A DNA stretch of 64,000 nt. It comes from Planctomycetota bacterium (GTDB lineage Bacteria; Planctomycetota; B15-G4). The translations under genes were made by a program, and so were the position numbers. Positions 4,745 through 56,836 of the stretch are shown here, one piece after another (the stretch's first letter is position 1; the number at the start of each line of letters is the position of its first letter). The notes under the pieces are model-generated. The model did not search any database. It was not told where the DNA came from and saw only the letters and a program-made list of their open reading frames with translations. The stretch covers positions 1 to 64,000 of the forward strand of contig JAJDEO010000013.1 in the NCBI GenBank assembly GCA_029259745.1. The letters are read 5' to 3'.

Positions 4745-4938
4745 GGCCGAAGAGTCGACGTCGCTTGGATCCGACATCTTTGCTGATACAGCCTCTTTGC
4801 TGACACGACGACCGACTCCCGACCAGCGCAACGAAAGCGTTTCCGCCACAAGCTACGATGCTTCACACAAAGGGAAGCTCGTCGGCATCTTACTTCCGCT
4901 CGACGCTTCAGACTTCGAACCCTCCCGGAGGATTAGCC

Positions 4939-5265: not shown

Positions 5266-5316
5266 GCGACAAGGTCCGCGATACACCGCAAGCGACGGAA
5301 TCGTCTGCACCGATCG

Positions 5317-24370: not shown

Positions 24371-24759
24371 GGCCAGTACGGATGGAGGGCGCACGTGGGA
24401 CGGACTCACACGCGGAGCCCCTCGAACATCACGAGGGCGCCGTGCGAGTTGGACCGATCGTTACAGTTCCGAAGACGTGTCACTTTACCGCGACGCGACG
24501 TCTGTCGAGTGCTCACCACTGTCGAGAAGTGATAGTCTTCAGCGCTCGAGAGTCGTCGTGAGGGCGTGACTTCTTCAGTAGAGGCAGGACGCGCGAGGTG
24601 TATGCCGAGGCATCTTCAGGCCTAGGTCGACGCGCGTTCGCTGAACAGAGACACGCCCCGCCGACCCTCGCGAGATGTTGGCGGCACGTCTGGCCAGTGA
24701 ACACAAGTGGACACGAGCCGATCGTCGCTACAGTGAACTGTCATGCGCGGGGGGCCAAC

Positions 24760-25338
24760 GTGGGCGAGGCCGAAGCAGACGAAACGACGGAGATTCTCCA
24801 CGAGATTGCCAAAGGCAATCGCGCGGCTGTCGATCGACTCGCGCCAGCCGTCTATCGCGAGCTCCATGGCCTTGCGCAAAGCATGCTGCGCCGCGAGGTG
24901 CGCGACCACACGCTACAGCCGACAGCCCTCGTCAACGAAGCGTACCTCCGACTGATCGACCAAGACCGGGTCGAGTGGGCATCGCGTGCGCACTTCTTTG
25001 CGATCGGCGCCAAGGCCATGCGACGCATCCTCATCGACCACGCGCGGAACCGCAAGCGACTCAAGCGCGGTGGAAACCATGTGCGCGTGATCGTCGACAC
25101 CGAGCTTGCCCTCTCCTTCGACCGTCCCGAGAGCTTCCTCGCACTCGACGAAGCTCTCGTCAAACTACGGGGACTCGACCGACGCCAATGCGACGTCGTC
25201 GAGATGCGGTTCTTTTCAGGCATGACCATGAGCGAGATTGCCGAGGCGCTGAACACATCCAAGCGCACCGTCGAGGGCGACTGGATGCTGGCACGTGCTT
25301 GGCTGCGCCGTGAGTTGAGCGACCCAAGCGTCGAATGA
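24760..25338 (+). CDS. ECF sigma factor of the Ser/Thr-kinase-associated (TIGR02999-like) type
   Basis: N-terminus EILHEIAKGNRAAVDRLAPAVYRELHGLAQSMLRREVRDHTLQPTALVNEAYLRL is characteristic of that family. Region 4 FSGMTMSEIAEALNTSKRTVEGDW. Start GTG 24760 (alternative GTG 24733). The stop overlaps the kinase start (ATGA). Confidence 0.7.
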   Translation: MGEAEADETTEILHEIAKGNRAAVDRLAPAVYRELHGLAQSMLRREVRDHTLQPTALVNEAYLRLIDQDRVEWASRAHFFAIGAKAMRRILIDHARNRKRLKRGGNHVRVIVDTELALSFDRPESFLALDEALVKLRGLDRRQCDVVEMRFFSGMTMSEIAEALNTSKRTVEGDWMLARAWLRRELSDPSVE

Positions 25339-27536
25339 GTCGCGATCAGCACAAGCGGGTCAGGAAGCTCTTCCTGCGTGCCGTGCGACGACCGGCCGAC
25401 GAACGCACCGCGTTGCTCGACGCCGAGTGCGACGACCAAGAACTTCGCGCCGACGTGCAGTCACTGCTCGACCACCATGTCGACGACGTCGCGACCGACA
25501 GCCTCGACGACATGCTCCCTGAAGTGCTGGTGCCGAGCAGTGGTCTCCGCAGCGCCTTTCAGTTCATGGCGAGGCAGCGCCCTTTCGTCACGGCCGCGCT
25601 GACAACGCTTCTCGTCGCGTCTGTTGGCATGCTGCTGCTCGCCATCGTCATGCAGCGGGAGATGCGTCACGTCCAAGCTGCCTCGCTCCGCACGATCCAT
25701 CGGGTGAGCCTCGAGGCTCTCGAGCAGGCTCTCAACACCCATCGCATGCAGGTTGTCGACTGCGCCGGTATGCCCAGCGTGCGTGCCGTGGTCCAAGACA
25801 TGGTCGCCCTCGAGGTCGGCGAACGAACGGACGAGGAGAGCGCGGACATCCCCAAGCTGCGCGCGCTCAACGAACGCATGAACGTGTTGATCGCGTCGTG
25901 GCTCGAAACGCTGCCCGGCGCGACGGGCTTCGGGATCGCTGACGAGCGCGGATACGTCCTCGCGATCGACGCCAACGACCGTGATTGGCTCGGCCGCAGG
26001 CTCTCCCCGATGGGTCGCCAGCTGACAACAGCAGTCATCGCCGCTGGACCACGCGTCCTGCTGCCATTCAGCGAGGATGAGCTCGTCGACACACCGCTAC
26101 GCCCCGACTCGATCAACACACTCGCCTTTACCGCTCCCATCCGCGGCAGCGACGGCACGCCGGTTGCCGCACTCGCAGTCTTCGTGGACGTCGAAGCCGA
26201 CTTCACGCGCATCCTCTCGCTCGCGCGGAGCACACCCGCAGGAACGACCTACGCGTTCGACGACCGCGGTGCCATGTTCTCGGCGCAACAGATCGACGAC
26301 GCCCACGACAGCCTGGCTTACGATGACAAAGGACGTCTCTTGCTCCTCGACCCCGGCGCCGACATCACACAAGGCGAGACGCCCGACCCCGTTTCGCTAC
26401 GTCCGACGACGCGCATCGTGCGCCAGGCGCTCGCCGAACGATCGAACCCCGAAGGGCCGCGTACCGGTGAGGTCAGCGACTACCGCGACATCCGCGGAGT
26501 AGAGTCCTTCGGGTTCTGGACGTGGCTCGACGAGTTCGGCTTCGGCGTGATCACGGAGATCAGCGATCGCCAAGCGTCGACGCCGATCCGTCCGCTGCGC
26601 AGCACGAGCGTGGGATTGATGGTCGCCACCATCGGGGCGCTGCTCGCCCTCTTCATCACGACGGGCGCTGCGAGAATGCTCCGTTCACGCCTCGCGCACA
26701 TCCGCCGACTCGGCAGCTACACGCTCGTCGAACACCTCGGCGTCGGCGGCATGGGCGACGTGTTCTTGGCGCGTCACGACATGCTCAAGCGCCCCACCGC
26801 CGTCAAGGTCCTCAGTGCGCGAGCGCTCACCGAGGTCGGCATCGCGCGCTTCGAACGCGAGGTGCAGTTCATGTCGCTGCTCACCCACCCGAACACCGTC
26901 GGCATCTACGATTACGGCCTCACCACCGAAGGGCTGCCGTACTTCGCGATGGAGTACGTCGACGGCACGACGCTCAAGTCGCTCGTCGAAACGGAGGGCG
27001 CGCTGCCCCTCGCGCGCGCCGTCGGCATCCTCGAACAACTCTGTGGAGCCCTCGCCGAGGCGCACACGCTGGGGCTCGTCCACCGCGACGTGAAACCTCT
27101 GAACATCATGCTGACCGAGCGGGGCGGTCGGCACGACTTCGTCAAGCTCCTCGACTTCGGACTCGCCAAGGACGTCCAACGCCGCCAGGACCTCACGCTC
27201 ACGTCCGCGACGACCGGCACGCCGCTCTACATCGCTCCCGAAGTCCTGCGCAGCCCTTCGGCGACGTCACCACGCTCGGACGTCTACTCCGTCGGCATCA
27301 TCGCCTACTACCTCGTGACGTCACGCGAGGTATTCGAGGGCGACACGGCTCTCGAGCTGTTCGCCCAGACCCTGACCGAAGACGTGCCGACACTCGCGGC
27401 ACTCACCGGCATCTCGCCGGACTTCGAGCAACTCATCCGCGACTGCCTCGCGAAGGATCCCGAGGAACGCCCGCAACACGCCGGCGCCGTCCTCGAACGA
27501 CTGCACGCGATCAGGGCCGCCATCGTGCCGACCTAG
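25335..27536 (+). CDS. Ser/Thr protein kinase with periplasmic sensor domain
   Basis: N-terminal ECF-associated motif (LFLRAVRRPADERTALLDAECDDQELRADVQSLLDHH), TM, a roughly 270-aa extracytoplasmic domain, a second TM, then the kinase domain (VGGMGDVFLARH, HRDVKPLNIML, DFGLAKD). Stop TAG 27534-27536 directly abuts MITE copy F. Confidence 0.85.
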   Translation: MSRDQHKRVRKLFLRAVRRPADERTALLDAECDDQELRADVQSLLDHHVDDVATDSLDDMLPEVLVPSSGLRSAFQFMARQRPFVTAALTTLLVASVGMLLLAIVMQREMRHVQAASLRTIHRVSLEALEQALNTHRMQVVDCAGMPSVRAVVQDMVALEVGERTDEESADIPKLRALNERMNVLIASWLETLPGATGFGIADERGYVLAIDANDRDWLGRRLSPMGRQLTTAVIAAGPRVLLPFSEDELVDTPLRPDSINTLAFTAPIRGSDGTPVAALAVFVDVEADFTRILSLARSTPAGTTYAFDDRGAMFSAQQIDDAHDSLAYDDKGRLLLLDPGADITQGETPDPVSLRPTTRIVRQALAERSNPEGPRTGEVSDYRDIRGVESFGFWTWLDEFGFGVITEISDRQASTPIRPLRSTSVGLMVATIGALLALFITTGAARMLRSRLAHIRRLGSYTLVEHLGVGGMGDVFLARHDMLKRPTAVKVLSARALTEVGIARFEREVQFMSLLTHPNTVGIYDYGLTTEGLPYFAMEYVDGTTLKSLVETEGALPLARAVGILEQLCGALAEAHTLGLVHRDVKPLNIMLTERGGRHDFVKLLDFGLAKDVQRRQDLTLTSATTGTPLYIAPEVLRSPSATSPRSDVYSVGIIAYYLVTSREVFEGDTALELFAQTLTEDVPTLAALTGISPDFEQLIRDCLAKDPEERPQHAGAVLERLHAIRAAIVPT

Positions 27537-27632
27537 CCCGCACTTCTCATGACGATCTCCCGCGCCTGCATCTGAATCCTTCCTGGCAAGGCTCAGCTGC
27601 AGCCTCGCGGCGACCCTCGTGCATCACTCGGG
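27537..27632 (-). repeat. MITE-like repeat, copy F (about 96 bp, internally deleted)
   Basis: TAG|CCCGCACTTCTCATGACGATCT ... CAAGGCTCAGCTGCAGCCTCGCGGCGACCCTCGTGCATCACTCGGG aligns in reverse orientation with copies A-D. It starts at the kinase stop codon. Confidence 0.6.
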
Positions 27633-27703
27633 CGCGCTCGGCTCGGCGCGGGCGCGAGACGCGAAGATCGGCGCGCCGGGTGCCGCGTCCTCGGCTCAGA
27701 GAC

Positions 27704-28987
27704 TCAGGGGCCGAAGACAGCCTCCAGCGCGTTGCTCAACGCCACGCCCTTCGGTTGCGAGCCGTCTGCGATCGCCGCCTGGAGGATGGCCGTGAAGGGG
27801 CCGCTCCCGCCGGGCACGGGCAGCGCGAGCTCGCCGGAGCTGTCGGTGCCGAAGGACAGCGTCAGCAAGATCGGCACCGGCACGAGCGTGCCGCCCTTGA
27901 ACGGCGCAGGGTTCTGCGCCAGCCCGACGAACAGGGCCACGGGCGCGTTCGCTGCCGCTTGTGTGAGCGAGAGGGTCGCGAGGCCACCGGAGTCGAGCGC
28001 ATCGCCACACAACGAAAGCGCAGCGTTGCCGGGTCCGCCGAAGCCGAGGTCGGTCTGGCACGTCTCGCAGACGAGTCGCTCGATACGCAGGTCGTCGATG
28101 GCCGCCTCGATGATCGACCCGTCGCCGTTGTCCGAGGCGATGAACCGCAGGCGCATCTGCGAGGTCGGCGCGACGAGGTCGGCGACGACAAAGCGGTGCT
28201 GCATCCAGCCGCCCACCGTCTCCGAGCCCGTCGGACCGACCACCTCGACACTCGTCCACGATGAACCGCCGTTGTTCGTGATGTCGACTTCGAAGATGTC
28301 CGCTCCGGCCGAACCGCCGGTCGAGTTGGAGTACCAGCGCCAGTAGCTGATGAGCGCGTCCTCGCCCGCGAGGTCGAAGAGATTCGTCGTCAGAGTCGTC
28401 TGCCCGCCGTCGACGTCGTTGTCACCGAGCCCGCCACCGAACGAGCCCTGCCCCGTGACGTAGCACTGCGTGCCGGACGGCGTGTGGTCGTCCTCCGGCT
28501 GGGCGCTCGTGCCGACGGGGTTGACGCGTTCCCAAATGCCCGTCGTGGCCGTGTCGGCCGGAGCCCCCACCGACCAGCCCGGGTTCGACTCGAGATCGAC
28601 TTCCGAGAGCAGCACCAGGTCGGATGCCGCGACCGTCGAGTAGCGCGCCGTCGGCGCACCGGCCGGCGCGGTCCAGGTCACACCGTCGGTCGTCTCGGCG
28701 CTCACGTACCACGAAACTTCCGAGCCACACTCGAACGTCGGCAGCAGCGCGCGGTAGTCGTCTCCACCGAGAACGGCGAGCGGCAGGTCGAACAGGCCCG
28801 CACCGGCGTCGTAGTGGAACGTCGCACTTCCCGGCACGATCGACACGCCAGGCTCGGGGTTGATCGTGACGTCTACCACCTCGTTGCTCGTGGAAAACAG
28901 CTCCGGGATGCCGTCGATGACGGTGATCGTGAGGTCGGGATCACCGAGACGCCAGAGAAACAGGCCCTTCTCGATGTCACTGCCCAC
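27704..28987 (-). CDS. C-terminal fragment: MAM-like (choice-of-anchor J-like) domain + conserved CTD (CTD family member 2)
   Basis: MAM-like motifs (PSGTQCYVTGQG, ALISYWRWYSN, GSIIEAAIDDLRIE). C-terminal LAQNPAPFKGGTLVPVPILLTL...ALSNALEAVFGP is the conserved CTD. It has no start codon of its own (GTG only), so it is the continuation of the upstream fragment. Confidence 0.55.
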   Translation of the reverse strand: MGSDIEKGLFLWRLGDPDLTITVIDGIPELFSTSNEVVDVTINPEPGVSIVPGSATFHYDAGAGLFDLPLAVLGGDDYRALLPTFECGSEVSWYVSAETTDGVTWTAPAGAPTARYSTVAASDLVLLSEVDLESNPGWSVGAPADTATTGIWERVNPVGTSAQPEDDHTPSGTQCYVTGQGSFGGGLGDNDVDGGQTTLTTNLFDLAGEDALISYWRWYSNSTGGSAGADIFEVDITNNGGSSWTSVEVVGPTGSETVGGWMQHRFVVADLVAPTSQMRLRFIASDNGDGSIIEAAIDDLRIERLVCETCQTDLGFGGPGNAALSLCGDALDSGGLATLSLTQAAANAPVALFVGLAQNPAPFKGGTLVPVPILLTLSFGTDSSGELALPVPGGSGPFTAILQAAIADGSQPKGVALSNALEAVFGP

Positions 28988-32026: not shown

Positions 32027-32061
32027 GGCCCCATCCTTCCTGAGAGTTGGACGTCTCGCCA

Positions 32062-32160
32062 GCCCGGGCTGTCAGGGAGAGCGTCGCGAAGCCGCAGCTG
32101 GGCCCATGCTGGCAAAGCGAAGCGACCTCTCTGACGTGATTCAACCCCCGAGGATCAGGG
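32062..32160 (+). repeat. MITE-like repeat, copy E (5' half only, 3'-truncated)
   Basis: CCCGGGCTGTCAGGGAGAGCGTCGCGAAGCCGCAGCTGGGCCCATGCTGGCAAAGCGAAGCGACCTCTCTGAC...GAGGATCAG aligns with the left half of copies A-C. The right TIR is absent. Confidence 0.5.
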
Positions 32161-32300
32161 GCGCGGCCCGTGCGGATTGCTTGCCCGTCGCGCGGGCCGC
32201 GCTCGCGACACACGCACCGTCACAAGCCCGACATCTCGGCGCTGAAATCTCGCTCGACGAATCGAAACAATGCCCCATTGCACTCGACGGAGGAGTCCCC

Positions 32301-40169: not shown

Positions 40170-40625
40170 GAAGAACTTCATGAGTTCGTCTTACTCGGGC
40201 GTGTCGCGATAGCCGCTGCCGTACGAGGTAAGCGCGAGTGCTCTTCGTCGATCGTCTCGAAGAGGATGACGTTGGAGAGCTTGTCGGCGTCCTGCTTCAG
40301 CACCTCGGGCCAGTTCTTCGCGACGTCGGGATCGTGCCGCCGACGCGGAGGTCGCTCTCCACGAGCGGTGACGGCCACGCGACCCAGCCGTCAACCGTCG
40401 TGTGGCATCCCAGACGGCACGTTGCGGCGCCGCGATGGAAACCTCCTGGACGAGGATCCGCTCGCCGGCATCGGTCACGTCGACGCGACTGACCACGTGC
40501 CCGGTTGCGTCGCCCGTCGGCGGGACATCGAGGGCAGCCACGACGAGCGGCAGCAGCGTTGCCGCAACGAAGATGACGAGGCGCATCGAGCCGCTCCGGT
40601 GAGTGGGTTACGATCACCCGCGTCA

Positions 40626-40802
40626 CCCGGATCATCCATTGACGATCGTCGCGAAGTCGCAGCTAGGCCTTGCTGGCAAAGCGATGCGAGGGTTCTGACC
40701 GGAGGCGGCCCATTTTGGCCGTTGAGGATCAGAAACGTCGCTTCGACGCCGCCAGGAAGGATCGACATGCGACCGCAGCAGATCGTCCGCGGATGATCCG
40801 GG
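40626..40802 (+). repeat. MITE-like repeat, copy B (about 177 bp, full-length)
   Basis: TIRs CCCGGATCATCCATTGACGATCGTC ... GATCGTCCGCGGATGATCCGGG. It is the best-preserved internal sequence (GTTCTGACC...GAGGATCAGAAACGTCGCTTCGACGCCGCCAGGAAGGATCGACATGCGACCGCAGCAGATCG). It sits between divergent genes and ends 36 bp before ATG 40839. Confidence 0.7.
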
Positions 40803-40838
40803 CTCAGTGCCCCAGACCCCGCTCGGCTCGAGTTCCCG

Positions 40839-42020
40839 ATGAACGCCCTCTCGATCCTCCTCACCTGTCTCCTTGCCGCATCGAGCCTGGCCTCGCCCGT
40901 GCAAGAGGCACGTACCGTCGACCCCGTCGAACCCGCCACGCTCGGAGACGCCTCCAACGTGCACCGCGCCGGATCACTGTTCCTCTCAGGAGGGCTCGAG
41001 CCTGGCGATGTCGACACGCTCGTCGAGCGCGGGATCACGCGCGTGATCAGTCTGTGTCAAGACGGCGAGGTCGATTGGGACGAGCAAGGTGCGCTGCGTG
41101 CGGCCGATATCAGGTTCATCTCGATTCCCCTGCGCGCGCCCGACACGTTCACGGACACGGCATTCCACACCCTGCGCATGCACCTCGCGACCGGGTCCGA
41201 GCCCACGCTCCTGCACTGCGCGTCGGCCAGTCGCGTCGGTGGTCTGTGGATTCCCTTCCGCGTCCTCGACCAGGGCGTGCCGATCGAACGCGCCGTCGCC
41301 GAAGCCAAGACGATCGGCATGGGCAATCCGGTCTACGAGCAGCGGGCGCGGGCGTACGTCGCACGGCAGCTCGCGCGAACGCGCGCACTCGAACCGTCGA
41401 GCATCAACGAGGGCATCAACACGTCGTACCTCGACCCCGATCTCGACGTCGACGCATTCGTCGCGCGCTTCGAGACCGAGAGCCGCGAGATCTTCACGTC
41501 ACGACACGCGATCGTCGCGTCGCTCGGCCTTGCTCCGGGCGACCGCGTCGCCGATGTCGGTGCGGGCACGGGCCTTTTCACGCCACTCTTCGCCGACTCC
41601 GTGACGCCGAACGGTTGGGTCTACGCCGTCGACATCGCTCCGCGCTTCCTGCAGCGCATCCTCGCAGCCGCCGAGGAAACCGACACGCGGCACCTCTCGG
41701 CCGTCCTGTGTCCCGAGGACTCGATCGGCCTCGCGCCCTCGACGATCGACGCGGCGTTCGTCTGCGACACGTATCACCACTTCGAGTATCCGCGGGCAAC
41801 GATGACGTCGATCCACGACGCCCTGCGACCGGGTGGCAAGCTCGTCGTCATCGACTTCCACCGCATTCCGGGTCTATCGAAGGACTGGGTCCTCGGACAC
41901 GTGCGCGCCGGACAGCAGGCGTTTCGCGCCGAGATCGAATCGGTCGGCTTCGAACACGTGCGCGACCTCGAGGTGGCCGGACTCGTCGAGAACTACGCGA
42001 TGGAGTTCGTGCGCCCCTGA
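40839..42020 (+). CDS. fusion protein: dual-specificity-phosphatase/rhodanese-like N-terminal domain + class I SAM-dependent methyltransferase
   Basis: Signal-like N-terminus. The HCASASRVGG P-loop-like motif resembles the DSP/Blh family. Methyltransferase motif I VADVGAGTGLFT and GGKLVVIDF. Confidence 0.65.
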   Translation: MNALSILLTCLLAASSLASPVQEARTVDPVEPATLGDASNVHRAGSLFLSGGLEPGDVDTLVERGITRVISLCQDGEVDWDEQGALRAADIRFISIPLRAPDTFTDTAFHTLRMHLATGSEPTLLHCASASRVGGLWIPFRVLDQGVPIERAVAEAKTIGMGNPVYEQRARAYVARQLARTRALEPSSINEGINTSYLDPDLDVDAFVARFETESREIFTSRHAIVASLGLAPGDRVADVGAGTGLFTPLFADSVTPNGWVYAVDIAPRFLQRILAAAEETDTRHLSAVLCPEDSIGLAPSTIDAAFVCDTYHHFEYPRATMTSIHDALRPGGKLVVIDFHRIPGLSKDWVLGHVRAGQQAFRAEIESVGFEHVRDLEVAGLVENYAMEFVRP

Positions 42021-42117
42021 GGATCCGGGTTCGGCGGCGCTGACGACGCCCTCGTGCGTGTCCAAGGGCATCGCCAGAGCAACTCGCGCTCCGTAGAGGC
42101 CGCGGCCCATTCCTAGC

Positions 42118-42263
42118 CCGGGTCATGGACGATCTGCTGCGGTCGCATCTGGATCCTTTCTGGCTGCGTCGAAGCGACGTCTCTGATCCTCAATGGCCCT
42201 CGCATCGCCTTTCCAGCAAGGCCCAGCTGCAACCTCGCGACGATCGTCCAGGAATGACCCGGG
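42118..42263 (-). repeat. MITE-like repeat, copy C (about 146 bp, reverse orientation)
   Basis: CCCGGGTCATGGACGATCTGCTGCGGTCGC ... GCGACGATCGTCCAGGAATGACCCGGG. It is preceded by TAG as in copies F and G. Confidence 0.7.
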
Positions 42264-42397
42264 CCTGGCAGGCTGTCGAAAAACTGCGACTCCGGGACGC
42301 CGTCTCGCCGCGCACGGCTTCACGCGTGACGCGCCGACCCCACGGCCGCGGCGCGACTGGTATCTTGGCGGTCAACGTCCTTCCTTGGAGCCCCACC

Positions 42398-44035
42398 ATG
42401 TCCCGCTTGCCGCTCGCCTCTGTTCTCGGCGCCCTCGTTCTCGCGCCGACCAGCCTTGCGTCCGACCCTAGCGACGTCGTCATCCAAGCCGTCGTGCTCG
42501 AGGGTGACACTATCAGCGGCATCGGCGACGTCACGACGACGGGCGCTGTCGCCGTCAACAACGCCGGCACATGGCTCGTCGAAGTCGACACGAACAACCC
42601 CGACACCGACATCGACGGCGCCATCGTCGGTGCCAGCGGAGTCGTGTTCGCCGAAGGTCAGTCGATCGCCACTCCGACCGGCGCGCTGCTCGACTCGTTC
42701 GGCGCGATCTCCGGCGCGCTCAACAACGCTGGCGACCTCGCCTGGAACCTCTTCCTCGACAACACCGTGGGCGGCGGCAACGACGACTCGGGTATCTACT
42801 TCAACACCGCGCAGGTGGTCCAAGAAGCAGGCATCGCGCTCGTCACGGGCCTCTCGGTCGGCACGACCTGGGAGGGCTTCTTCTCGGTCCACCACAACGA
42901 CGCCAACCAGGTGCTCGCGATGACGAGCGTCGACGACCCGGCCATCGCGACCAGCGTCGATCGCGCGCTCGTGCTCTTCACGATCGACGGCACGGGCACG
43001 CCGACGAGCGCAGAGGTCGTCCTCAAGGAAGGCGACATCCCGCCCGGTCAGACAGAAGCCGTCGCCGACATGGAGACGAGCGTGCACAACTTCGTCCTCA
43101 ACGATGCCGGGCAAACGCTGCTGATCGCCGACCTCGCCGGCGACACGGCCGTCGATCACGCCGTCTACATGGACGGCACCCTGCTCGCGCAAGAGGGTTC
43201 GCCGTCTCCGGTGACAGGCCGCAACTGGGACCTGCTGTCGCTCGCCGAACTCGACCTCAACAACGCGGGCAGCTGGGTGCTCAGCGGATCGATCGAGGGC
43301 GACACCGCCACGGACGACATCATCGTCGTGGACGGCGACGTCTTCATCCAAACCGGCGACAGTCTGCCGGCGACGGGCGGATCGCCGATCACGTCGCTCG
43401 GGACGACGGGCTCGTCGGGCCCCGTGTACATCGGCGACAACGGCAACGTGCTCTGGTCGGCCGAGTGGAACGGTGGGAGCTCGAAGGGACTCTTCCTCAA
43501 CGACCGCCTGTTGGCCGAGATCAACCTGACCTCGATCGGCGGGTTCGTGCTTGAAGAGATCTTCGCCGTCACCGAGGGCTACGCGCTCAGCGATGACGGC
43601 CAGAAGGTCATCTTCCGCGGACGCCTTTCGGGCAGCATCGACGGAGCGTTCCTGATCGACGTGGGTCCGTGGGTCAGCCTCGGCAAGGGACTCGCCGGCG
43701 TCAACGGTGTGCCATGCCTGACGGGCTCGGGCACGCTCGCCGCGGGTGACGACGTCACGCTGTCACTGCGCGATGCAGCGCCCTCGGCCGTCACGAACCT
43801 CGTGATCGGATTCACGGAACTCTGCGCACCGTTCAAGGGCGGCACGATCGTGCCGAGTGTCGACGTGCTCATCGGCGGCCTCCCCACCAACGGGTTCGGC
43901 GACCTCGCACTGACGGCACCCTTCCCGGCCGGCGTCCCCGCGGCCACCGACCTCTACTTCCAGTTCTTCACGTCAGACGCAGCAGCGATCAAAGGCATCT
44001 CGGCCTCGAACGGCGTGCGCGGGACGACGCCCTGA
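42398..44035 (+). CDS. secreted repeat protein with conserved C-terminal domain (CTD family member 3)
   Basis: Signal peptide MSRLPLASVLGALVLAPTSLASD. Roughly 60-aa internal repeats (..DG.L.AQEG......G..L.S....NNAG.W.). C-terminus NLVIGFTELCAPFKGGTIVPSVDVLIGGLPTNGFGDLALTAPFPAGVPAATDLYFQ...SASNGVRGTTP. Confidence 0.75.
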   Translation: MSRLPLASVLGALVLAPTSLASDPSDVVIQAVVLEGDTISGIGDVTTTGAVAVNNAGTWLVEVDTNNPDTDIDGAIVGASGVVFAEGQSIATPTGALLDSFGAISGALNNAGDLAWNLFLDNTVGGGNDDSGIYFNTAQVVQEAGIALVTGLSVGTTWEGFFSVHHNDANQVLAMTSVDDPAIATSVDRALVLFTIDGTGTPTSAEVVLKEGDIPPGQTEAVADMETSVHNFVLNDAGQTLLIADLAGDTAVDHAVYMDGTLLAQEGSPSPVTGRNWDLLSLAELDLNNAGSWVLSGSIEGDTATDDIIVVDGDVFIQTGDSLPATGGSPITSLGTTGSSGPVYIGDNGNVLWSAEWNGGSSKGLFLNDRLLAEINLTSIGGFVLEEIFAVTEGYALSDDGQKVIFRGRLSGSIDGAFLIDVGPWVSLGKGLAGVNGVPCLTGSGTLAAGDDVTLSLRDAAPSAVTNLVIGFTELCAPFKGGTIVPSVDVLIGGLPTNGFGDLALTAPFPAGVPAATDLYFQFFTSDAAAIKGISASNGVRGTTP

Positions 44036-44100: not shown

Positions 44101-45717
44101 ATGATGATCCGCAACGCCCTGCTTGCCGCCGCAACCATCCTCGGCCTCGGTCCGTCGGCCGTGGCTGACGACATCTTCGTTCCTGCCGACACGCCCTCGA
44201 TTCAGTTCGCTCTGAACTCCGCGTCGACCGGCGACCGCATCTTCGTCTCGGCCGGAGCCTACGCGAACGCTCTCGCGTTCTTGGGCAAGGACGTCGAAGT
44301 CATCGCTGTCGACGGCCCGGAGGTCACGGTGCTCGACGGCGCGGCGATCAACGGCGGGGCCTCGGTGATCTTCGCCTTGGGCACCGGGGACGGCGCGCTC
44401 GTGAAGGGCTTCACGATCCGCGACAACGACGGCGATGCGGTCACCATCGAAGACGCCGTCGGTACGCTCGAGAACTGCGTCATCTCGGGCACGAACGGAA
44501 ACGGTATTCGGGTCTTCGCGAACGGTGAGCTGCGAGCGACGGAGGTCACGATCACGGGGTGTAGCCTGAGCGGTGTCGACGGGGCGGGTGGAACGTCGAT
44601 CCTGGAGCGCTGTGAGATCTCGTCTTGCGGAAACACGGGGCTTCGGGGTGGCACCTGCATCGAGTGCCTCATCGAGGGGAACGGCAACGCGTCGTCCTTC
44701 GGCGGCGGAGCCTTCGGCGCGACGCTCATCGACTGCATCGTGCGCGACAACCTCGCATCGACGGGTGGCGGCGGGGCTTTCCTGGGGGGCGCGCAAGGCA
44801 CGACCTTCAGCTCGAACCACGCGACGTTCGCCGGCGGCGGCTACTACTTCACAGGTTCGTTCGGAGCCTCGCTCAGCGGTGCGACGTTCATCGACAACAC
44901 GGACGCCAACGGAACTTCGGGCGCCGCCATCAGTGCATCGAGTGACGGCATCTTCGGGACCAGTGCGTTCATCGGCGACTGTGTGTTCGTCCGCAACGAC
45001 GCATCGGTGAGCGCCTACGCAGCCACCTCGACCAGTTCGGCGGGCTTCGGGTCGTGTACGTTCATCGACTCGGACGCGTTCGTGTCCGCCGACAGTATGG
45101 GCGTCGCGAACTCGATCGTGCGCGGTGGCTCGATCGTCTCGTCGTCGGGAACGCTGAGCGTGACGTACAGCAACGTCGAAGGCGGTGCCGTCGGTGAGGG
45201 CAACATCGACGCCGACCCGCTGTTCGTCGGCGGTGCCGATCAGGGCGTGGTCTGCCTCGGCCTCGGGTCCCCGTGCATCGATACCGGCAACCCGACGGTC
45301 TTCGACCCCGACGGCTCGGTCCTCGACATGGGCGCCGAGCCCTACTCGGTCTTCTGCGACGCCGACAACGCACTGCGCGGACGCGCCGGCTTCCCGACGC
45401 TCACACCCAGCGGCGACACGACGCCGGGCGCGGCGCTGTCACTCGCCCTCGAGCACGGCGTGCCGAACGGCACGAGCAACTGGATCCTCGGGATCGCGCC
45501 GGTCTTCGCGTCCTTGAAGGGCGGCGTGCTCGTCCCCGACCTCACGTTCCTGCTGCCCGGGCTGCCTCTCGACGCCACGGGCAGCCTGATGCTCGGCTCG
45601 ACCTGGCCCGCCGGCATTCCGGCCGGCACACCCGTCTGGATCCAGGCCTGGATGGTCGACTCGCAGGCCGTGAAGAACTTCTCGGCGTCGAACGGCGTGG
45701 CCATCCTCGGGAGCTGA
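44101..45717 (+). CDS. secreted right-handed beta-helix (pectate-lyase-fold) repeat protein with conserved CTD (CTD family member 4)
   Basis: Signal peptide. Repeated G-rich beta-helix rungs (GTNGNGIRVF, GCSLSGVDGAGG, GNTGLRGG, ...). C-terminus ILGIAPVFASLKGGVLVPDLTFLLPGLPLDATGSLMLGSTWPAGIPAGTPVWIQAW...SASNGVAILGS. Confidence 0.75.
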   Translation: MMIRNALLAAATILGLGPSAVADDIFVPADTPSIQFALNSASTGDRIFVSAGAYANALAFLGKDVEVIAVDGPEVTVLDGAAINGGASVIFALGTGDGALVKGFTIRDNDGDAVTIEDAVGTLENCVISGTNGNGIRVFANGELRATEVTITGCSLSGVDGAGGTSILERCEISSCGNTGLRGGTCIECLIEGNGNASSFGGGAFGATLIDCIVRDNLASTGGGGAFLGGAQGTTFSSNHATFAGGGYYFTGSFGASLSGATFIDNTDANGTSGAAISASSDGIFGTSAFIGDCVFVRNDASVSAYAATSTSSAGFGSCTFIDSDAFVSADSMGVANSIVRGGSIVSSSGTLSVTYSNVEGGAVGEGNIDADPLFVGGADQGVVCLGLGSPCIDTGNPTVFDPDGSVLDMGAEPYSVFCDADNALRGRAGFPTLTPSGDTTPGAALSLALEHGVPNGTSNWILGIAPVFASLKGGVLVPDLTFLLPGLPLDATGSLMLGSTWPAGIPAGTPVWIQAWMVDSQAVKNFSASNGVAILGS

Positions 45718-48119: not shown

Positions 48120-48515
48120 ATGCTGTCACTTCGCCCCGCCGTCACGGCCCTCGTCCTGCTCGCGCTGACGTCATGTTCCGCGACGCGTCTCTACGATGGC
48201 CCCGCGCGCCTCGAGCACGAGGTGGTTCGCATCAAGGGCATGAGCAACGCCGACCCGCTGTCGGGCTTCACCGGCACCTCCGTCTGCGCGATCGACGGAC
48301 GCGAACTCGAGGGATGCCCACGCCACGTCGAGTTCCTGCCCGGAACGCACGAGCTACGCCTCGAGAGGCGTCGCTACGGCCTGAACGCCGCGCAGGCGAC
48401 CGTCGTGCAAGACTTCGCGCCTGGCGAACGCCACGTCATCGGCATCAGCTACAGCGCCAATGACGGCATGAAGCCGGCGTTGATCATCACCGACATCGTG
48501 ACCGCAGACGGTTAG
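48120..48515 (+). CDS. hypothetical lipoprotein
   Basis: Lipobox LALTSCS. It lies 31 nt downstream of the amidase gene. Stop TAG 48513-48515 is immediately followed by MITE copy G. Confidence 0.5.
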   Translation: MLSLRPAVTALVLLALTSCSATRLYDGPARLEHEVVRIKGMSNADPLSGFTGTSVCAIDGRELEGCPRHVEFLPGTHELRLERRRYGLNAAQATVVQDFAPGERHVIGISYSANDGMKPALIITDIVTADG

Positions 48516-48600
48516 CCCGGGTGATTCATGGACATCGGCTGCGACCGAATCCGAATCCTACCTGGCAGCTCCTCACGACGATCGTCCGTGAACCATCCGC
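48516..48600 (-). repeat. MITE-like repeat, copy G (about 85 bp, internally deleted, reverse orientation)
   Basis: TAG|CCCGGGTGATTCATGGACATCGGCTGCGACCG ... CACGACGATCGTCCGTGAACCATCCG. It fills the gap between two convergent genes. Confidence 0.6.
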
Positions 48601-48613
48601 TGATTCTGGCGCG

Positions 48614-49240
48614 TCAGGCTCGCGGTTTGCCGAGCACCCAGGTCGTCATGCACCGCAGACCGGCAACGTTCGTCGTCTTGATCGGGTCGAGGAGTTCACC
48701 GCCGAGCCGACGTGAGTGACCGAGCAAGTCGTTCTCGTCGACGAGGTAGCGCTGCGAGCCATCGGGCAACTGGAACCAACCCGGTTGCGCCGGGACGACG
48801 TGGACGCGTTTCTCGATCCCGATGGACGACGCCAGGCGCGACCAGAACAGCCCGCCCTCGGCGAGCACGCGCCAGCACTCGTCGAGACACGCAACGAACA
48901 CGGCACGCGATGCACTGAAGTGCAGCACGGCATTGCAGATGACGACATCGAAGGCCCCGTCGTCGAACGGGAGCTGCTCGAGCGCCGCGACCTCGAAGCG
49001 TGCGTTCGGCCTGCCCGCGAAGCGCTCTCGAGCCTCGGCGACCGCCTCTTCGCTGCGGTCCACTCCCACGACATCGAAACCGGCCTGTGCGAGGTAGTCC
49101 AGGTTGCGGCCCGCGCCACAGCCTGCGTCGAGCACGCGCATCCCCGGGACGATCCGCCCGCGCAGGAGCTGATCGAAGAGATACACATCGATTGAACCGA
49201 AGAGGTCGCGCAGGCCCTCGGGCGGCAATGGTGTGGACAA
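48614..49240 (-). CDS. class I SAM-dependent methyltransferase
   Basis: Motif [17 protein letters not shown] and post-I DVVGVD. The start is uncertain: TTG 49240 (GGAG 6 nt upstream) is preferred over the GTG at 49339, whose N-terminus is not protein-like. Confidence 0.55.
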
Positions 49241-51246: not shown

Positions 51247-51325
51247 GTCGTTCGCGGGCATCCACTTCGCCGGTCCACCACATGGACGAATCGACATCGA
51301 CACATGCGTACACACCTGAACAGCG

Positions 51326-51448
51326 CGGGTTCATGCACGATCGTCGCGAGGTTGCGGCTGGGCCCGCTGCGCATCGGGAAACATCGCTGCCGCGCTGCGA
51401 GGGAGGATTCAGAGGCGACCGCAGCAGATCGCCCGTGAATAATCCGGG
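51326..51448 (+). repeat. MITE-like repeat, copy D (about 123 bp, central deletion)
   Basis: CGGGTTCATGCACGATCGTCGCGAGGTTGCGGCTGGGCC ... GGCGACCGCAGCAGATCGCCCGTGAATAATCCGGG. It ends 54 bp before the start of the giant CHAT gene. Confidence 0.65.
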
Positions 51449-51502
51449 TTAACGTGAGACGCCGCTGCCGCGACGGCAGCGAGATATCTTGGGGGCAAGA
51501 TC

Positions 51503-54500
51503 ATGGCCGAGTACACCGTCGTCGGGGAACGCACGCGCAACGCCGAAAGCGCACTGCGACTCGACGGAACGACCATCTCCGTGGCGCGCGGAGTGCGCAT
51601 GCTCGGCGCGACGCGCGCCGGCGCGCACGAGACGAAGATCGAGATCGGGAAAGACGATCTCATCGAGGTGGAGTTCGACAACGGCTTCGTCCTCTGGACG
51701 ACCATCGACCGCCTCGAGCACGACACGCGCCAGGGTGCGACGCGCGGCGCCGAGGGCACGCTCCCGACGCGCTATCCCACGCCGGACGATACCGGCGAGC
51801 GCGGCTTCGTCGGCAACGTCATCCGCGCCCTCAAAGTGCTCAACTACGACCTTCCGAAAGAGGGCGCGCGTGCGGTTGCCGCGAAGGTCGAAGGGCAACT
51901 GGCGGGCGAGGGATTCCTGCGCATCGCGCGCGACGGCAGTCTGACGCCCGAAGCCCCCGCTGCGGACAACGCCGACAAGCCGGTGCTTGTCCTCATCCAC
52001 GGCACGGCCTCGGCGACGGCGAACGCCTACTCGGGGCTCTTCGAGACGAACAACAAGCTCTGGCGCGAGCTGCACGACCACTACGAAGGCCGCGTCTTCG
52101 GCTTCGAACACCGAACGCTCACGCAGAGTCCGCTGCAGAACGCGGCAGACCTGCTCGACGCCCTCCCGGCGGACCTCGAGCTGCACCTCGTCACGCACAG
52201 CCGCGGTGGACTCGTCGGCGACCTGATCGCGCATGGCCAGGTGCAGGGCGACATCTTTGCGCCCGACGACATCGAGCGCGAACTCGCCCACGCCTTCGGC
52301 AAGGGATCCTCGGCGTTCACCGAGCAACGCAAGCTCTACCGCAAGTACCAGCGCGCCATCGCCGCCAAGCGTCCGCGCGTCACGCGCTTCGTGCGGGTCG
52401 GTTGTCCGGCAGCCGGCACGACGTTGGCTTCGGGGCGCCTCGACACGCTCTTCTCGATCCTCGTCAACCTCGCCAACGGCATCCCGGGAATCGGTCCGTT
52501 CGTCGCGGCTTTCGGTGAACTCGTCGCGGCCGTCGCCAAGGAGCGCACCCAGACTGACGCCCTGCCCGGCCTCGAAGCCCAGCGCCCCACCTCCGCGTTC
52601 ATCCGCCTGCTGAACAGCTCGCAGCACGTCCTCGAGAGCGACCTCACGGTGCTCGCCGGCGACTCGGACGGCTTCATCAAGAACCTCGCCAACCTCTTCT
52701 TCTGGAAAGCCAACGACCTCGTCGTCGACACCCGCTCGATGGCCGGTGGCGCGACCCGGCGCGAGTACCTCTGGCACCTCGAAGAGAACCGCCACGTCAC
52801 GCACGTGAACTACTTCCGTCGCTCCGAGACGGCCTCGCTCGTCCAGCGCGCACTTCTGCGCACGGACGCCGGAACGGCGGGCTACGAGCGACGCGCGCGG
52901 AACAGTGCGATGCGCGGCGAGGTCGACGAGGGCAAGCCCGACGAGAAGGTCGATCAGACGGGCGTGGTCTTGCTGCCCGGCATCATGGGCTCGCATCTGA
53001 GCGTCGAGGACGGCAACCGCCGCAACCGCATCTGGCTCGACAAGTCGGACATCATGATGGGACGCGGGAAGCTGCTCCGCACGGGAGCCGCGACGGTGCA
53101 TCCCGACGGTGTCCTTCAAAGCGCCTACGACGACATCCGCGACAACTTCGTCGGGCACGACCTGCACGTCATGCCCATGGCGTACGACTGGCGCATTTCG
53201 CTGACGCGCGCCGCCGACCAGCTCAACGCGCTCGTCCGGCAGCGGCTCGAGGCCTCATCGGAACCTCTGCACCTGCTGGCCCACTCGATGGGCGGTGTCG
53301 TCGCGAGCCTGTTCATCGCACGCCACGACGATACCTGGCAGCGACTGCGAGCCGGTGGCGGGCGGCTTGTCCAAGCCGGGACACCGAACCGCGGTTCGTA
53401 CGTCATCCCGCGCATCTTCCAGGGCACCGAGAAGATGCTGCGCATGCTTGCCGGCCTCGACTTTCGTGCCGACACGAAGCAGTGGGCGACGTGGGCCACC
53501 GGCTGGCAAGGGGTGCTGGAACTCACGCCGCAGTTCGACGACCTCGACTTCTCGAAGACGCAAACGTGGAAGGACTTCGCGCCGCTTGCGCATCCGAGCG
53601 AAGCGCAGCTCCGCAGAGCTGGCAACATCTGGGAGATCTTGCACGAGCAGACGAAGAAGCTCGCCGATGAAGACGTTCTCTACGTCGCCGGCGGCCCCAC
53701 CGAGACGCCGATCTACGACCCGACCGCCGTGAGTGACGACAAGAGCGGCGCGCACCATGTCATCCGCTGGACCGAGCGCGGCGACGGCCGTGTCACCTGG
53801 GACTCGGGGATCCCGCCGCGTACTCGCACCTGGTACATCCCCGTCAAGCACGGCAGCTTGCTCAACGAGAGGCAGGCCTTCGACGGCCTCCGCGAGCTCG
53901 TCACCACGGGCGCGACGGACAAGCTCGCCAGCGAACCGCCACCGGCCTCGACGATGCTGCGGTCGGGCACCGAAGACGTCCCGGTGCTCGCCGACGACGA
54001 GCACATGCCGTTCATTCCGTCGGACGAGCAACTCGAGGCCGCTGCTCTCGATGCCGAGGACCCGACCGAACGCCGCGCGCGTCGTCGCCGCGACACGCCG
54101 CCCGTCACACTCTCGGTCGTGCACGGCGACCTGCGCTTCTCACGCCACCCGATCATGGCGGGCCACTACGCCGGCGACCCGATCGTGCACGCCGAAGCCG
54201 CACTCGACCGCTGCCTCGACGGGGCACTCCGCACGCAGCACCAGCTCGGCCTCTATCCCGGCGCGACGGGAACGGCCGAGATCCTCCTGAGCCCGCGAAG
54301 CGCTTTGCGCTCAGACCTGGCCGGACCGAGTGGCGCGATCATCCTCGGCCTCGGAAACGTCGGCGAGCTGACGCCAGGCGCCCTCACACGTTCGATCGAG
54401 GCGGGGCTGCTGCGCTTTGCACAGGCCGCCTGCGACCGTCCCCATTCTGCCGCGGGCCTGACCGTGTCGACGCTCCTGGTCGGGAGTGGCGAGGCCGGAC

Positions 54501-56836
54501 TCGCCGTCGCGCCGATCATCGACGCGCTGCTCGACGGAGTCGAACGCACGAATCGCGCCATCGCGAATCTTCCCCGAGACGACGAGGGCGCGTCGCTCCG
54601 TCAGCTCTCTCCGATCGCGCGCATCGAGATCATCGAGCTGTATCACGACATCGCTCTCGAGGCCCTCCACGCCCTGCGCGCCGCGCCAGCACGCAACGGC
54701 GTCACCATTCATCCCACGCTGATCGCACGCAGCGGTGGTCGCCGACGGGCGCGCGCATCAGCGCCGGCGGGTTGGTGGACGCGCCTGTCGATCGAAGCCT
54801 CGCGCGACGAGAAGTGCGCCGACCGCGTCACGCTCCGATTCACGTCGCACGGCGAGCGGGCGCGGGCCCGCGTCAGCGACGTGTGCCTGCAAGAACGCCT
54901 CGTGAGTCAGGTGCTCGCCGAGACGATGCGCAACCAGGCCTCGGCGACGGGACACGTTCCGCAGGCGCTCTTCGAGCTGCTCGTGCCGTGTGACCTCAAG
55001 GCCGGCGCCGCCGACCAACGCGACATCCAACTCGTGCTCGACGAGACCTCGGCGAGCTACCCGTGGGAGCTGCTCGTCGACCGCAACTCCGCCGGCGATC
55101 GGCCGATCGGCATCGGCGCGGGGATGCTGCGGCAGCTGCGTGTGAAGAGTCCACCGCTCGTCCACCATCCCGAGAACCACAGTGCGCTGGTGGTCGGCGA
55201 CCCGCCGTCGAACTTCCCGGCACTCCCGGGTGCGCGACGCGAGGCCCAGGCCGTCGCCGCGACGCTCTCGGATCGCGGCTGGGACGTCGTGACGCAGATC
55301 CGCAGCAGCGATGACGCCACCGATGTCTCGGCGTCGAGCGTCGTGCGCGCCCTGCTGACGCACGACGCACGCATCCTCCACCTCGCCGGCCACGGCATCC
55401 ACGACGCCAACGACCCGCGCAAGTCGGGGCTCGTCCTCGGTGGCAGCCCGAACGATCCCAAGGACCCGCCGGTGCTCGTGACGGTCGAGGAGATCGCGCA
55501 GATGCGCACGCAGCCCGAGGTCGTCTTCATCAACTGCTGCCATCTGGGACGCATCGAATCGAACTCGCCGTTCCCGGAACTGGCGTCCAACCTCGCGGCC
55601 GAGTTCATTCGCGCGGGCGTAAAGATCGTGGTGGCTGCGGGCTGGGCCGTCGACGACCGCGCCGCGAAGACGTTCAGCGAAACCTTCTACGAGTGGATGC
55701 TCGGCGGGGCCGACTTCGGCACGGCGGTTCGCCGCGCGCGCGAAGCCACGTACGACCAGTTCAGCGAGTCGAACACCTGGGGCGCCTACCAGTGCTACGG
55801 CGACCCCGGCTTCCGGCTGTCGATGGACCTCGAGGTTCGCGCACTCGCGCAAGACACGTCACGCCGACGCACTCGCTTCGTCGACCCCAGCGAGATCGCG
55901 ATCGCGCTCGACAACATCGTGCACACCGCATGCGTCGATACGTCGGACAAGGAGAAGGAAGGGCTCGCCCGCTGGCTCGAGTCGCTCACGTCGGCGGCCG
56001 AGGACGCGGGGTGGGAAAGCGACCCGGACGTCCTCATCGGCCTCGCGCGTGCGCATGGCGAGCTCGGCAATCACGAGATGTGCATCGCGCTGACCGAACG
56101 CGCACAGAGGCTCGAGGCCGGTCGCGTGACGCTGCACGACATCGAGCAACTCGCCAACCATCGCGCGCGCGTCGCGTTGTCATCGCGCGACGCGAAGCTC
56201 TTCGAACGCGTCATCGGAGATCTCGAGGCGCTGATCACGACGCACGGCGCAACGGCCGAGCGCAAGTCGCTCTTGGCTTCGACGTGGAAACGTTTCGCGA
56301 TCCTCCAGATCAGCAAGGACGCCTCGCGCAAGGCCGTGCGCAAGGCGGTCTGCGCCATGACGCAGCGATACATCGAGGCCACGGCGCTCGACGCGCCTCA
56401 GTGGTTCTACCCGGCGACGAACGCACTCCTCGGCGTGCTACTGCTCGGCGGCCCGTGGGCGCGCGCGCCGCGCAAGAGCACCGTGGCCCGCGAGATCTGG
56501 GACGCACTCGACGGGTGGGCGAAGCGCGAGACGTTCGAGACGAACTTGCGCCGTGCCGAGGACAGCCTTCCGAACGACGGGCACCAAGACCTCTGGGACG
56601 CCCTCGCGTCCCCGGAACTCGCGGTAGTGAAGGCCCTCGCGGACGATGCGTTCGCCAAACGATCTCAGCAGATCGCCGCCCGCTATCGCTCGGTGCTCGC
56701 TCTGTACGGATCACAGCGCGAGATCGGTTCAGTCGCCAACAACTGGGACTTCGCTCTGAACGCCGCCAAGGCGCTTGACGAACCTCAACTCATCCGCGAC
56801 ATCGCGCAACTCCAGCAGCTTCTCCAGCGCCCCTGA
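51503..56836 (+). CDS. giant (1777 aa) multidomain protein: two PGAP1/LCAT-like alpha/beta-hydrolase (lipase/esterase) domains + CHAT (caspase-like) peptidase domain + helical/TPR-like C-terminus
   Basis: Domain 1 VLVLIHGTASA...LVTHSRGGLVGDL. Domain 2 VVLLPGIMGSHL...LLAHSMGGVVASLF, an AHSMGG nucleophile elbow. CHAT HGxxD near the end of ILHLAGHGIHDANDP and the Cys dyad region VVFINCCHLG. C-terminal helical repeats. Single uninterrupted ORF. Confidence 0.85.
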   Translation: MAEYTVVGERTRNAESALRLDGTTISVARGVRMLGATRAGAHETKIEIGKDDLIEVEFDNGFVLWTTIDRLEHDTRQGATRGAEGTLPTRYPTPDDTGERGFVGNVIRALKVLNYDLPKEGARAVAAKVEGQLAGEGFLRIARDGSLTPEAPAADNADKPVLVLIHGTASATANAYSGLFETNNKLWRELHDHYEGRVFGFEHRTLTQSPLQNAADLLDALPADLELHLVTHSRGGLVGDLIAHGQVQGDIFAPDDIERELAHAFGKGSSAFTEQRKLYRKYQRAIAAKRPRVTRFVRVGCPAAGTTLASGRLDTLFSILVNLANGIPGIGPFVAAFGELVAAVAKERTQTDALPGLEAQRPTSAFIRLLNSSQHVLESDLTVLAGDSDGFIKNLANLFFWKANDLVVDTRSMAGGATRREYLWHLEENRHVTHVNYFRRSETASLVQRALLRTDAGTAGYERRARNSAMRGEVDEGKPDEKVDQTGVVLLPGIMGSHLSVEDGNRRNRIWLDKSDIMMGRGKLLRTGAATVHPDGVLQSAYDDIRDNFVGHDLHVMPMAYDWRISLTRAADQLNALVRQRLEASSEPLHLLAHSMGGVVASLFIARHDDTWQRLRAGGGRLVQAGTPNRGSYVIPRIFQGTEKMLRMLAGLDFRADTKQWATWATGWQGVLELTPQFDDLDFSKTQTWKDFAPLAHPSEAQLRRAGNIWEILHEQTKKLADEDVLYVAGGPTETPIYDPTAVSDDKSGAHHVIRWTERGDGRVTWDSGIPPRTRTWYIPVKHGSLLNERQAFDGLRELVTTGATDKLASEPPPASTMLRSGTEDVPVLADDEHMPFIPSDEQLEAAALDAEDPTERRARRRRDTPPVTLSVVHGDLRFSRHPIMAGHYAGDPIVHAEAALDRCLDGALRTQHQLGLYPGATGTAEILLSPRSALRSDLAGPSGAIILGLGNVGELTPGALTRSIEAGLLRFAQAACDRPHSAAGLTVSTLLVGSGEAGLAVAPIIDALLDGVERTNRAIANLPRDDEGASLRQLSPIARIEIIELYHDIALEALHALRAAPARNGVTIHPTLIARSGGRRRARASAPAGWWTRLSIEASRDEKCADRVTLRFTSHGERARARVSDVCLQERLVSQVLAETMRNQASATGHVPQALFELLVPCDLKAGAADQRDIQLVLDETSASYPWELLVDRNSAGDRPIGIGAGMLRQLRVKSPPLVHHPENHSALVVGDPPSNFPALPGARREAQAVAATLSDRGWDVVTQIRSSDDATDVSASSVVRALLTHDARILHLAGHGIHDANDPRKSGLVLGGSPNDPKDPPVLVTVEEIAQMRTQPEVVFINCCHLGRIESNSPFPELASNLAAEFIRAGVKIVVAAGWAVDDRAAKTFSETFYEWMLGGADFGTAVRRAREATYDQFSESNTWGAYQCYGDPGFRLSMDLEVRALAQDTSRRRTRFVDPSEIAIALDNIVHTACVDTSDKEKEGLARWLESLTSAAEDAGWESDPDVLIGLARAHGELGNHEMCIALTERAQRLEAGRVTLHDIEQLANHRARVALSSRDAKLFERVIGDLEALITTHGATAERKSLLASTWKRFAILQISKDASRKAVRKAVCAMTQRYIEATALDAPQWFYPATNALLGVLLLGGPWARAPRKSTVAREIWDALDGWAKRETFETNLRRAEDSLPNDGHQDLWDALASPELAVVKALADDAFAKRSQQIAARYRSVLALYGSQREIGSVANNWDFALNAAKALDEPQLIRDIAQLQQLLQRP

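Follow-up and report, generated by a model that had tools for sequence, protein, structure and literature searches.

The 64,000-nucleotide stretch of DNA analysed here (the window), from an uncultured member of the Planctomycetota, carries a dispersed family of short palindromic repeats, which is probably a lineage-specific, non-autonomous and non-coding mobile repeat of the MITE or REPIN kind. The sequence family appears to be undescribed; its kind is well known (PMC10969869, PMC3184786, PMC11602168). In well-studied bacteria, small palindromic repeats are a common find, but hardly any have been catalogued from Planctomycetota or from metagenome-assembled genomes.

The original prediction had counted at least eight copies, and this count held. 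The four long copies served to build an nhmmer profile, which recovered all eight sites (E 1.4e-49 to 1.2e-3), and no ninth site in the 64-kb window fell below E=0.1, none being better than E=0.17. A covariance model of the consensus hairpin (R1) found six of the eight, namely the four long copies and those at 27528-27639 and 48507-48608. It missed the two that are shortest by nhmmer (4401-4450 and 32066-32126) and added no credible new site in the window; a weak match at 28128-28276 (E 0.02), inside a coding region, was discarded. The segments 1501-1652, 40644-40805, 42123-42263 and 51339-51451 were also linked by a repeat finder. The sites had been located correctly, but the elements reach about 5-10 bp further than predicted and end in YTAR-CCCGGG. 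They are 56-193 bp long, are spread over 50 kb and occur in both orientations, as had been claimed. Four copies (145-193 bp) are close to complete, three have internal deletions with both ends kept and one has lost its right arm. Their GC content is 58-66%, compared with 64-70% in the window and 67% in the genome. Pairwise identity among the copies is 62-88%; this divergence of 12-38% marks them as old, so that any current activity is hypothetical. The flanks are unique and unrelated for every one of the eight copies, which together with the range of identities indicates dispersal and not segmental duplication, the reading that had been set against the mobile element from the start.

The near-full copy at 1478-1658 (+, 181 bp; nhmmer E 1.8e-48; 159 bits with the covariance model; dG -72.6 and z -2.6 when 1478-1656 was folded) lies between genes of the same direction, with the upstream stop at 1361 and the start of a VIT/VWA gene at 1727. 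The Logan contig L036, which corresponds to about 1616-6466 of the window, begins inside this copy, suggesting that the family fragments short-read assemblies of this organism. The longest copy, at 40619-40811 (+, 193 bp), also forms the best hairpin (dG -107.3, z -7.2 for 40616-40812) and scored E 3.4e-49 with nhmmer (40621-40808) and 169.9 bits with the covariance model; it sits just upstream of a methyltransferase gene (start 40839). On the other side of that gene, between its stop at 42020 and the start of a DUF7453 gene at 42398, lies a full copy with a shorter apex at 42108-42270 (-; nhmmer 42109-42268, E 1.4e-49; 178 bits; dG -87.6 and z -6.6 for 42108-42273). These two are the most similar of the copies, being 88% identical and inverted relative to each other. 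The fourth long copy, at 51313-51457 (+, 145 bp), has lost its apex (nhmmer 51315-51455, E 4e-35; 111.7 bits; dG -54.2). It is placed between an AhpC/TSA-redoxin-domain gene (stop 51167) and the gene of a 1777-aa DUF7379-CHAT protein (start 51503), and TTAA flanks its right end.

The remaining copies are shorter. The minimal one, of about 56 bp at 4395-4450 (+; nhmmer 4401-4450, E 2.5e-4; dG -30.9, z -3.4), keeps the ends TGACCCGGG and CCCGGGTCA and has lost nearly its whole interior. It occupies a convergent junction: the copy includes the last 14 codons of a rhomboid gene together with the stop (4435-4437), and it is abutted by the stop of a minus-strand YCII gene (4448-4450). The copy at 27528-27639 (-; 43.8 bits, E 6e-9; nhmmer 27532-27588, E 1.2e-3; dG -47.3, z -2.6) is internally deleted with both arms kept. 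It also lies in a convergent junction, where the Ser/Thr kinase gene 25335-27536 takes its TAG stop (27534-27536) from the terminal CTAG of the copy. Another internally deleted copy, at 48507-48608 (-; 27 bits, E 1e-4; nhmmer 48511-48569, E 1.4e-8), was also seen in an alignment with the empty site in the relative L034. It fills a convergent junction, its terminal TTAG giving the TAG stop (48513-48515) of a 130-aa gene, with the stop of a minus-strand methyltransferase gene at 48614-48616. The truncated copy at 32053-32163 (+; nhmmer 32066-32126, E 5.7e-8), identified also from its sequence, consists of the left arm and apex only and lies in a divergent intergenic region between a minus-strand gene starting at 32026 and a plus-strand gene starting at 32301.

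Each long copy is an imperfect palindrome over its whole length. The original prediction of terminal inverted repeats ending in CCCGGG was right about the repeats and their ends, but limiting them to about 25 bp was not. The conserved end reads YTAR-CCCGGG-TGATTCATGG-ACGATCGTC (for example CTAGCCCGGG), extending about 4 bp past the CCCGGG, and wherever a copy has both ends, YTAR-CCCGGGTGATTCATGGACGATC, these pair with each other. The RNAalifold consensus has 50 pairs and is unbranched, and the long stem that full copies were expected to form runs through them from end to end. The apex is hypervariable, with length differences of 26 bp and about 16 bp between copies. Size varies through loss of the apex and inner stem: the copy at 51313-51457 is without its apex, and those at 27528-27639 and 48507-48608 are without most of the interior. 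As had been proposed, these variants are internal deletions, since both CCCGGG ends are retained in all internally deleted copies, including the minimal 56-bp one.

The stability of these hairpins could also mean that the element is not selfish DNA but is selected by the host, as an RNA 3'-end protector, a terminator, a modulator of translation near stop codons or a DNA site for a regulator. The hairpins are very stable, and three of the eight copies sit exactly at stop codons of convergent junctions. However, the two strands fold about equally in all eight copies (dG difference 0.1-11 kcal/mol, with varying direction) and have similar G-U counts, so the palindrome belongs to the DNA and not to one transcript; for the same reasons a strand-specific RNA was rejected as the main reading. 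Orientation is mixed as well, with 42108-42270 antisense to its neighbours and 1478-1658 and 51313-51457 sense. Structure is poor among the short copies, with z between -0.5 and 0.1 in three of them. Around the two best copies (40400-42500) neither strand has a T-run or a terminator- or promoter-like site, and the flanks of all copies are GC-rich. The structured RNA family offered as an alternative in the original prediction found no support in Rfam, which had nothing for the whole window at the gathering threshold and nothing for 40500-42400 at E<=1.

Covariation was scored on six copies aligned to the model, which gave 256 informative pair cells: 198 unchanged, 20 with a one-sided change that still pairs, 7 with a two-sided, compensatory change and 31 broken. 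Divergence is lower in paired columns (13.9%) than in unpaired ones (23.8%). Double changes numbered 12, about 2.4 times the roughly 5 expected at 14% per-site divergence. These figures are a weak signal that palindromy is maintained in the family. The better conserved stems and the 7 compensatory cells could be claimed for a host function; on the other hand, the excess of double changes is small and 5 of the 12 break the pair. The pattern fits the constraints of a transposase or a hairpin, or correction within the hairpin, and is unlike the strong strand-specific covariation of a functional RNA. Considering also that the corresponding junctions of syntenic relatives have no element and that the neighbouring genes are functionally unrelated, we regard selection by the host as quite improbable.

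A small coding peptide was likewise rejected, since stops occur in the six-frame translations and indels shift the frame between copies, so that no reading frame is conserved. The spurious open reading frames predicted earlier are real consequences of the repeats: long false frames or false N-terminal extensions arise at 42125-42397 and 40670-42043, and an ATG at 42125, inside a copy, extends the gene 42398-44035 by 91 codons. Integron attC sites are marked by RYYYAAC...GTTRRRY core sites, one uniform orientation and a nearby integrase; the family falls outside this description, given its CCCGGG ends, its mixed orientation and the lack of an integrase among the scanned reading frames.

The history of the family was read from comparison with the nearest retrievable relatives, L034 (SRR36204701) and L035 (SRR29340338), which share the gene order of the window at 68-70% amino acid and about 76% nucleotide identity in shared genes. 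Neither contains a copy by nhmmer or the covariance model. The spacer between the methyltransferase and DUF7453 genes measures 50 bp in L034 and 65 bp in L035, and 377 bp in the window, where it holds the 163-bp copy. At the convergent junction of the 130-aa gene and the small methyltransferase gene, where the flanking proteins are 52% and 65% identical and their orthology was confirmed, the two stops overlap as CTAG (GACTAGCC) in L034 but are 98 bp apart in the window, the gap being almost entirely repeat (48507-48608). Repeat-free orthologous junctions in the relatives support insertion in the lineage of the window. For junctions so tight, loss in both relatives would be less parsimonious, and the alignments support the view that the copies were gained. 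Because the relatives are distant and the element does not account for all the differences between the spacers, the boundaries of the insertions are approximate and not exact to the nucleotide.

These comparisons also bear on the idea that the repeats are not a family at all but stem from local segmental duplication, from a composite transposon with the methyltransferase gene as its cargo, or from an artefact of assembly. A composite transposon is suggested by the inverted pair of most similar copies on either side of that gene; nevertheless, the methyltransferase-DUF7453 pair is found in the same place in both repeat-free relatives, and the gene was thus not imported by the copies that flank it. 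Segmental duplication is contradicted by the unrelated flanks of the eight copies, their 50-kb span and their divergence. As for an artefact, an independent Logan assembly (L028, run SRR15505515) reproduces the copies at 32053-32163 and 40619-40811 with identical scores, which shows that they are not created by the assembly of the window. All of these readings are therefore excluded by unrelated flanks, repeat-free synteny and independent assembly, and we consider them extremely unlikely.

Beyond the two relatives, no copy was found in the more distant Planctomycetota contigs L029-L032 or in L033, a 14-kb piece probably from the same 130-kb contig; the other Logan contigs of run SRR15505515, L028 and L036, add no sequence outside the window. 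The exact 21-mer GACCGCAGCAGATCGTCCRYG matched 13 loci among genome contigs and 14 among metagenome contigs, all single chance matches covering only the pattern. Plasmids and phages, searched by blastn in distant mode, contained no match, and the six-frame pseudo-protein of three copies, compared with 5.8 billion proteins, gave nothing at E<=0.01. The family is likely to be lineage-restricted, as judged from searches that were narrow outside the contig (the exact 21-mer). The product of the methyltransferase gene (40839-42020) has an identical counterpart encoded on a 130,019-bp NCBI contig, and its named homologues are proteins of "Planctomycetota bacterium" metagenome-assembled genomes.

Two further features emerged from the alignment with the relatives. 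All three genomes share the motif CTGGTATCKTGGSCG roughly 40 bp upstream of the start of the DUF7453 gene, at 42357-42371 in the window and at about 11196-11210 in L034 and 6412-6426 in L035 (positions estimated from the alignment). The spacer otherwise differs among them, and the motif may serve as a promoter or operator. In addition, an ECF-sigma and Ser/Thr-kinase pair lies between flavodoxin-like and amidase genes in L034 (15017-17961). The corresponding spacer in the window is about 245 bp, with a sigma-kinase pair (24598-27536) 20 kb away, which points to rearrangement or paralogy between the relatives.

Three copies lie between genes of the same direction, in both orientations relative to them, two in divergent promoter regions and three in convergent junctions; all three in convergent junctions are short derivatives. 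The original prediction that the copies are always intergenic is thus nearly correct but slightly too strong, because the end of the rhomboid gene lies within the copy at 4395-4450 and the copies at 27528-27639 and 48507-48608 contain the TAG stops of their neighbours. By Pfam and the gene tables of L028 and L036, the genes around the copies are ordinary and unrelated: VIT/VWA, rhomboid, YCII, ECF sigma with Ser/Thr kinase, YtkA, DUF1800/DUF1501, a two-component system, a phosphatase-methyltransferase, DUF7453, amidase, an AhpC/TSA-redoxin-domain protein and the CHAT protein.

The tetranucleotide at the ends of the element deserves attention. CTAG is about 24-fold under-represented in the window (8 observed against 195 expected from composition), and three of the eight CTAGs belong to the repeats, whose total length is about 1.7% of the window. 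YTAR occurs at 19 sites in the window, and four of these coincide exactly with the right end of an element. From the scarcity of CTAG and the YTAR sites at right ends, we infer that the terminal tetranucleotide either belongs to the element and is under constraint or is what the element targets. As separate observations on composition, TTAA is depleted (4 observed against 47.5 expected) and CGATCG is about 5-fold over-represented (111 against 22) in the window.

No target-site duplication was detected in seven copies at offsets of 0-7 on each side and lengths of 2-7 (384 combinations); the best mean identity, 0.5 at 2 bp, is at chance level for these seven old copies, which are 12-38% diverged. 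The direct repeats that flank MITEs become less recognisable as the elements age (PMC10969869). For this family, the search makes a fixed-offset duplication of at least 3 bp unlikely, and one of 2 bp, such as TA, would be compatible with it. As the original prediction stated, the window holds no transposase: no transposase, integrase or reverse transcriptase was found by Pfam in its 30 long reading frames or among the Pfam annotations of the L028 and L036 genes. Nor was there a longer parent element in the window, or a Y1/HUH (Y1_Tnp-type) match among the scanned reading frames. The description of the family as MITE-like therefore stands in part. Its dispersal, non-coding nature, terminal inverted repeats, deletions and absence from relatives agree with it; the target-site duplication, transposase and parent transposon that would complete it were not found.

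Two types of enzyme might have moved such an element. A DDE-type transposase acting as on a MITE is slightly favoured, and is held tentatively, because of the size of the element, its long terminal inverted repeats, the retention of both ends in the deletion derivatives and the YTAR-like context of the ends. We take this context to be reminiscent of IS5/IS630-type targets. The other candidate, an HUH/tyrosine transposase acting on a single-stranded hairpin as for REPINs, accounts for the data nearly as well and is possible, if rather doubtful.

Under this second reading, the element would be a doublet of inverted units moved as single-stranded DNA by a single-copy HUH/tyrosine transposase (RAYT/TIRYT) without duplicating its target, the terminal YTAG playing the role of GTAG in REPs. 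We hold it to be somewhat unlikely, though several features speak for it: a palindrome that extends beyond terminal repeats over the whole length, the lack of a detected duplication, a preference of the extragenic copies for gene 3' ends and convergent junctions, a conserved tetranucleotide beside the stem, and the lower divergence and compensatory cells of the paired columns. Families of REP and TIR repeats with tyrosine transposases have also been reported in the planctomycete R. baltica (PMC3733652). REPs are defined as stem-loop units of 20-40 bp with a terminal GTAG (or CGTC) motif (PMC3733652), however, and the arms here are about 80 bp, much longer than such units. GTAG is absent, CGTC is present only within the stem (GACGATCGTC) and not as a terminal tag, and the ends are YTAG/YCAG-CCCGGG. 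No Y1/HUH transposase gene lies in the window, and a missing duplication is weak evidence when the seven copies are old. The whole-length palindrome and the lack of duplication fit the REPIN or TIR-repeat type about as well as they fit a classical DDE MITE.

A less ordinary possibility is that the family represents a third class of "tagged" hairpin repeats (YTAG-CCCGGG). Such repeats would be moved as single-stranded DNA by an unrecognised HUH/tyrosine transposase of Planctomycetota that targets the avoided CTAG/YTAR sites at stop codons; they would remodel gene 3' ends and might have been co-opted as RNA hairpins close to stop codons. We consider this improbable. The family conveys no new biological principle, and the association with stop codons and CTAG is the only lead toward something less ordinary.

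For the mobile palindromic repeat that we prefer, the following course of events would be consistent with the sequences. An element of about 160-190 bp would be recognised at its two identical ends by a transposase encoded elsewhere in the genome, which would move or copy it into gene-free DNA. Insertions would tend toward rare TA-containing sites, which in a 67% GC genome are presumably for the most part stop codons and gene junctions. After insertion the copies would decay, and loss of the hairpin apex by internal deletion would give the derivatives of 50-145 bp that keep both ends. Effects on the host would be incidental: a strong hairpin added to 5' or 3' untranslated regions, and a stop codon provided or displaced in three cases.

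Comparison with known systems gives a similar picture. Prokaryotic MITEs are shorter than 500 bp, have terminal inverted repeats, are intergenic and form a stable stem-loop (PMC10969869). Like Correia/NEMIS of Neisseria and RUP of S. pneumoniae (PMC10969869, PMC3184786), the present family is below 500 bp, non-coding and bounded by terminal inverted repeats, with many dispersed copies in both orientations. It is also mostly intergenic, forms stable stem-loops, varies in size by internal deletion and can supply or alter gene ends. In contrast to them, it is without a detectable target-site duplication and no cognate IS was identified, and it is GC-rich (58-66%) where typical MITEs are AT-rich. 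Within the collections searched, it has no sequence similarity to any element.

REPINs are described as hairpin-forming inverted doublets of REPs (PMC3116915, PMC3337134). REPIN, REP and TIR repeats (PMC3116915, PMC3733652) are hairpin-forming inverted doublets that are extragenic and often at gene 3' ends, like the repeats found here; they too have a conserved tetranucleotide beside the stem, they come without target duplication, none being detected here, and such repeats have been reported in Planctomycetes. Unlike REPs, the present family ends in YTAG/CCCGGG and not in GTAG or CGTC, and the length of its arms places it outside the REP definition. It also differs from RAYT/TIRYT-associated repeats in that no associated tyrosine transposase was seen in the window.

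The ERIC or IRU repeats of enterobacteria are said to have been described (by Hulton in 1991 and by Wilson & Sharp in 2006) as extragenic imperfect palindromes over their whole length, with deletion and insertion variants at internal sites. They are not known to have a transposase. ERICs occupy conserved positions in different species and are now regarded as largely immobile. The present repeats resemble them as imperfect palindromes of roughly 130-190 bp over the whole length, in their extragenic position and in having shorter and longer variants. They differ in sequence and phylum, and in that syntenic relatives are without copies.

In practical terms, the family can mislead annotation and assembly, with spurious reading frames, false N-terminal extensions, possible breaks in short-read assemblies and three stop codons provided or displaced. 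It would also be a useful marker for strain typing and assembly quality in this lineage. If its transposase were found, the family would be a further example of a mobile element directed to TA-containing sites, which are very rare in a high-GC genome.

Some neighbouring genes have features of their own. The reading frame 40191-40586 (-) has a signal-peptide-like N-terminus (MRLVIFVAATLLPLVVAAL...) and a GGAG motif upstream; it is absent from the Logan gene table and has no similarity to the gene at that position in L034. The 1777-aa protein encoded at 51503-56836 (+), directly downstream of the copy at 51313-51457, combines DUF7379, an alpha/beta-hydrolase-like region, a CHAT protease and a TPR-S sensor domain, an architecture that resembles those of proteases in defence or signalling. 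A C-terminal domain of about 120 aa (motifs APFKGGTLVP, WPAGIP, SASNG) without a Pfam match is common to four secreted proteins, at 15844-16206 (+), 27707-28069 (-), 43670-44032 (+) and 45352-45714 (+). A profile search with this domain found 304 proteins, of which the named ones come from Planctomycetota metagenome-assembled genomes, and it may be a lineage-specific sorting or anchoring domain.
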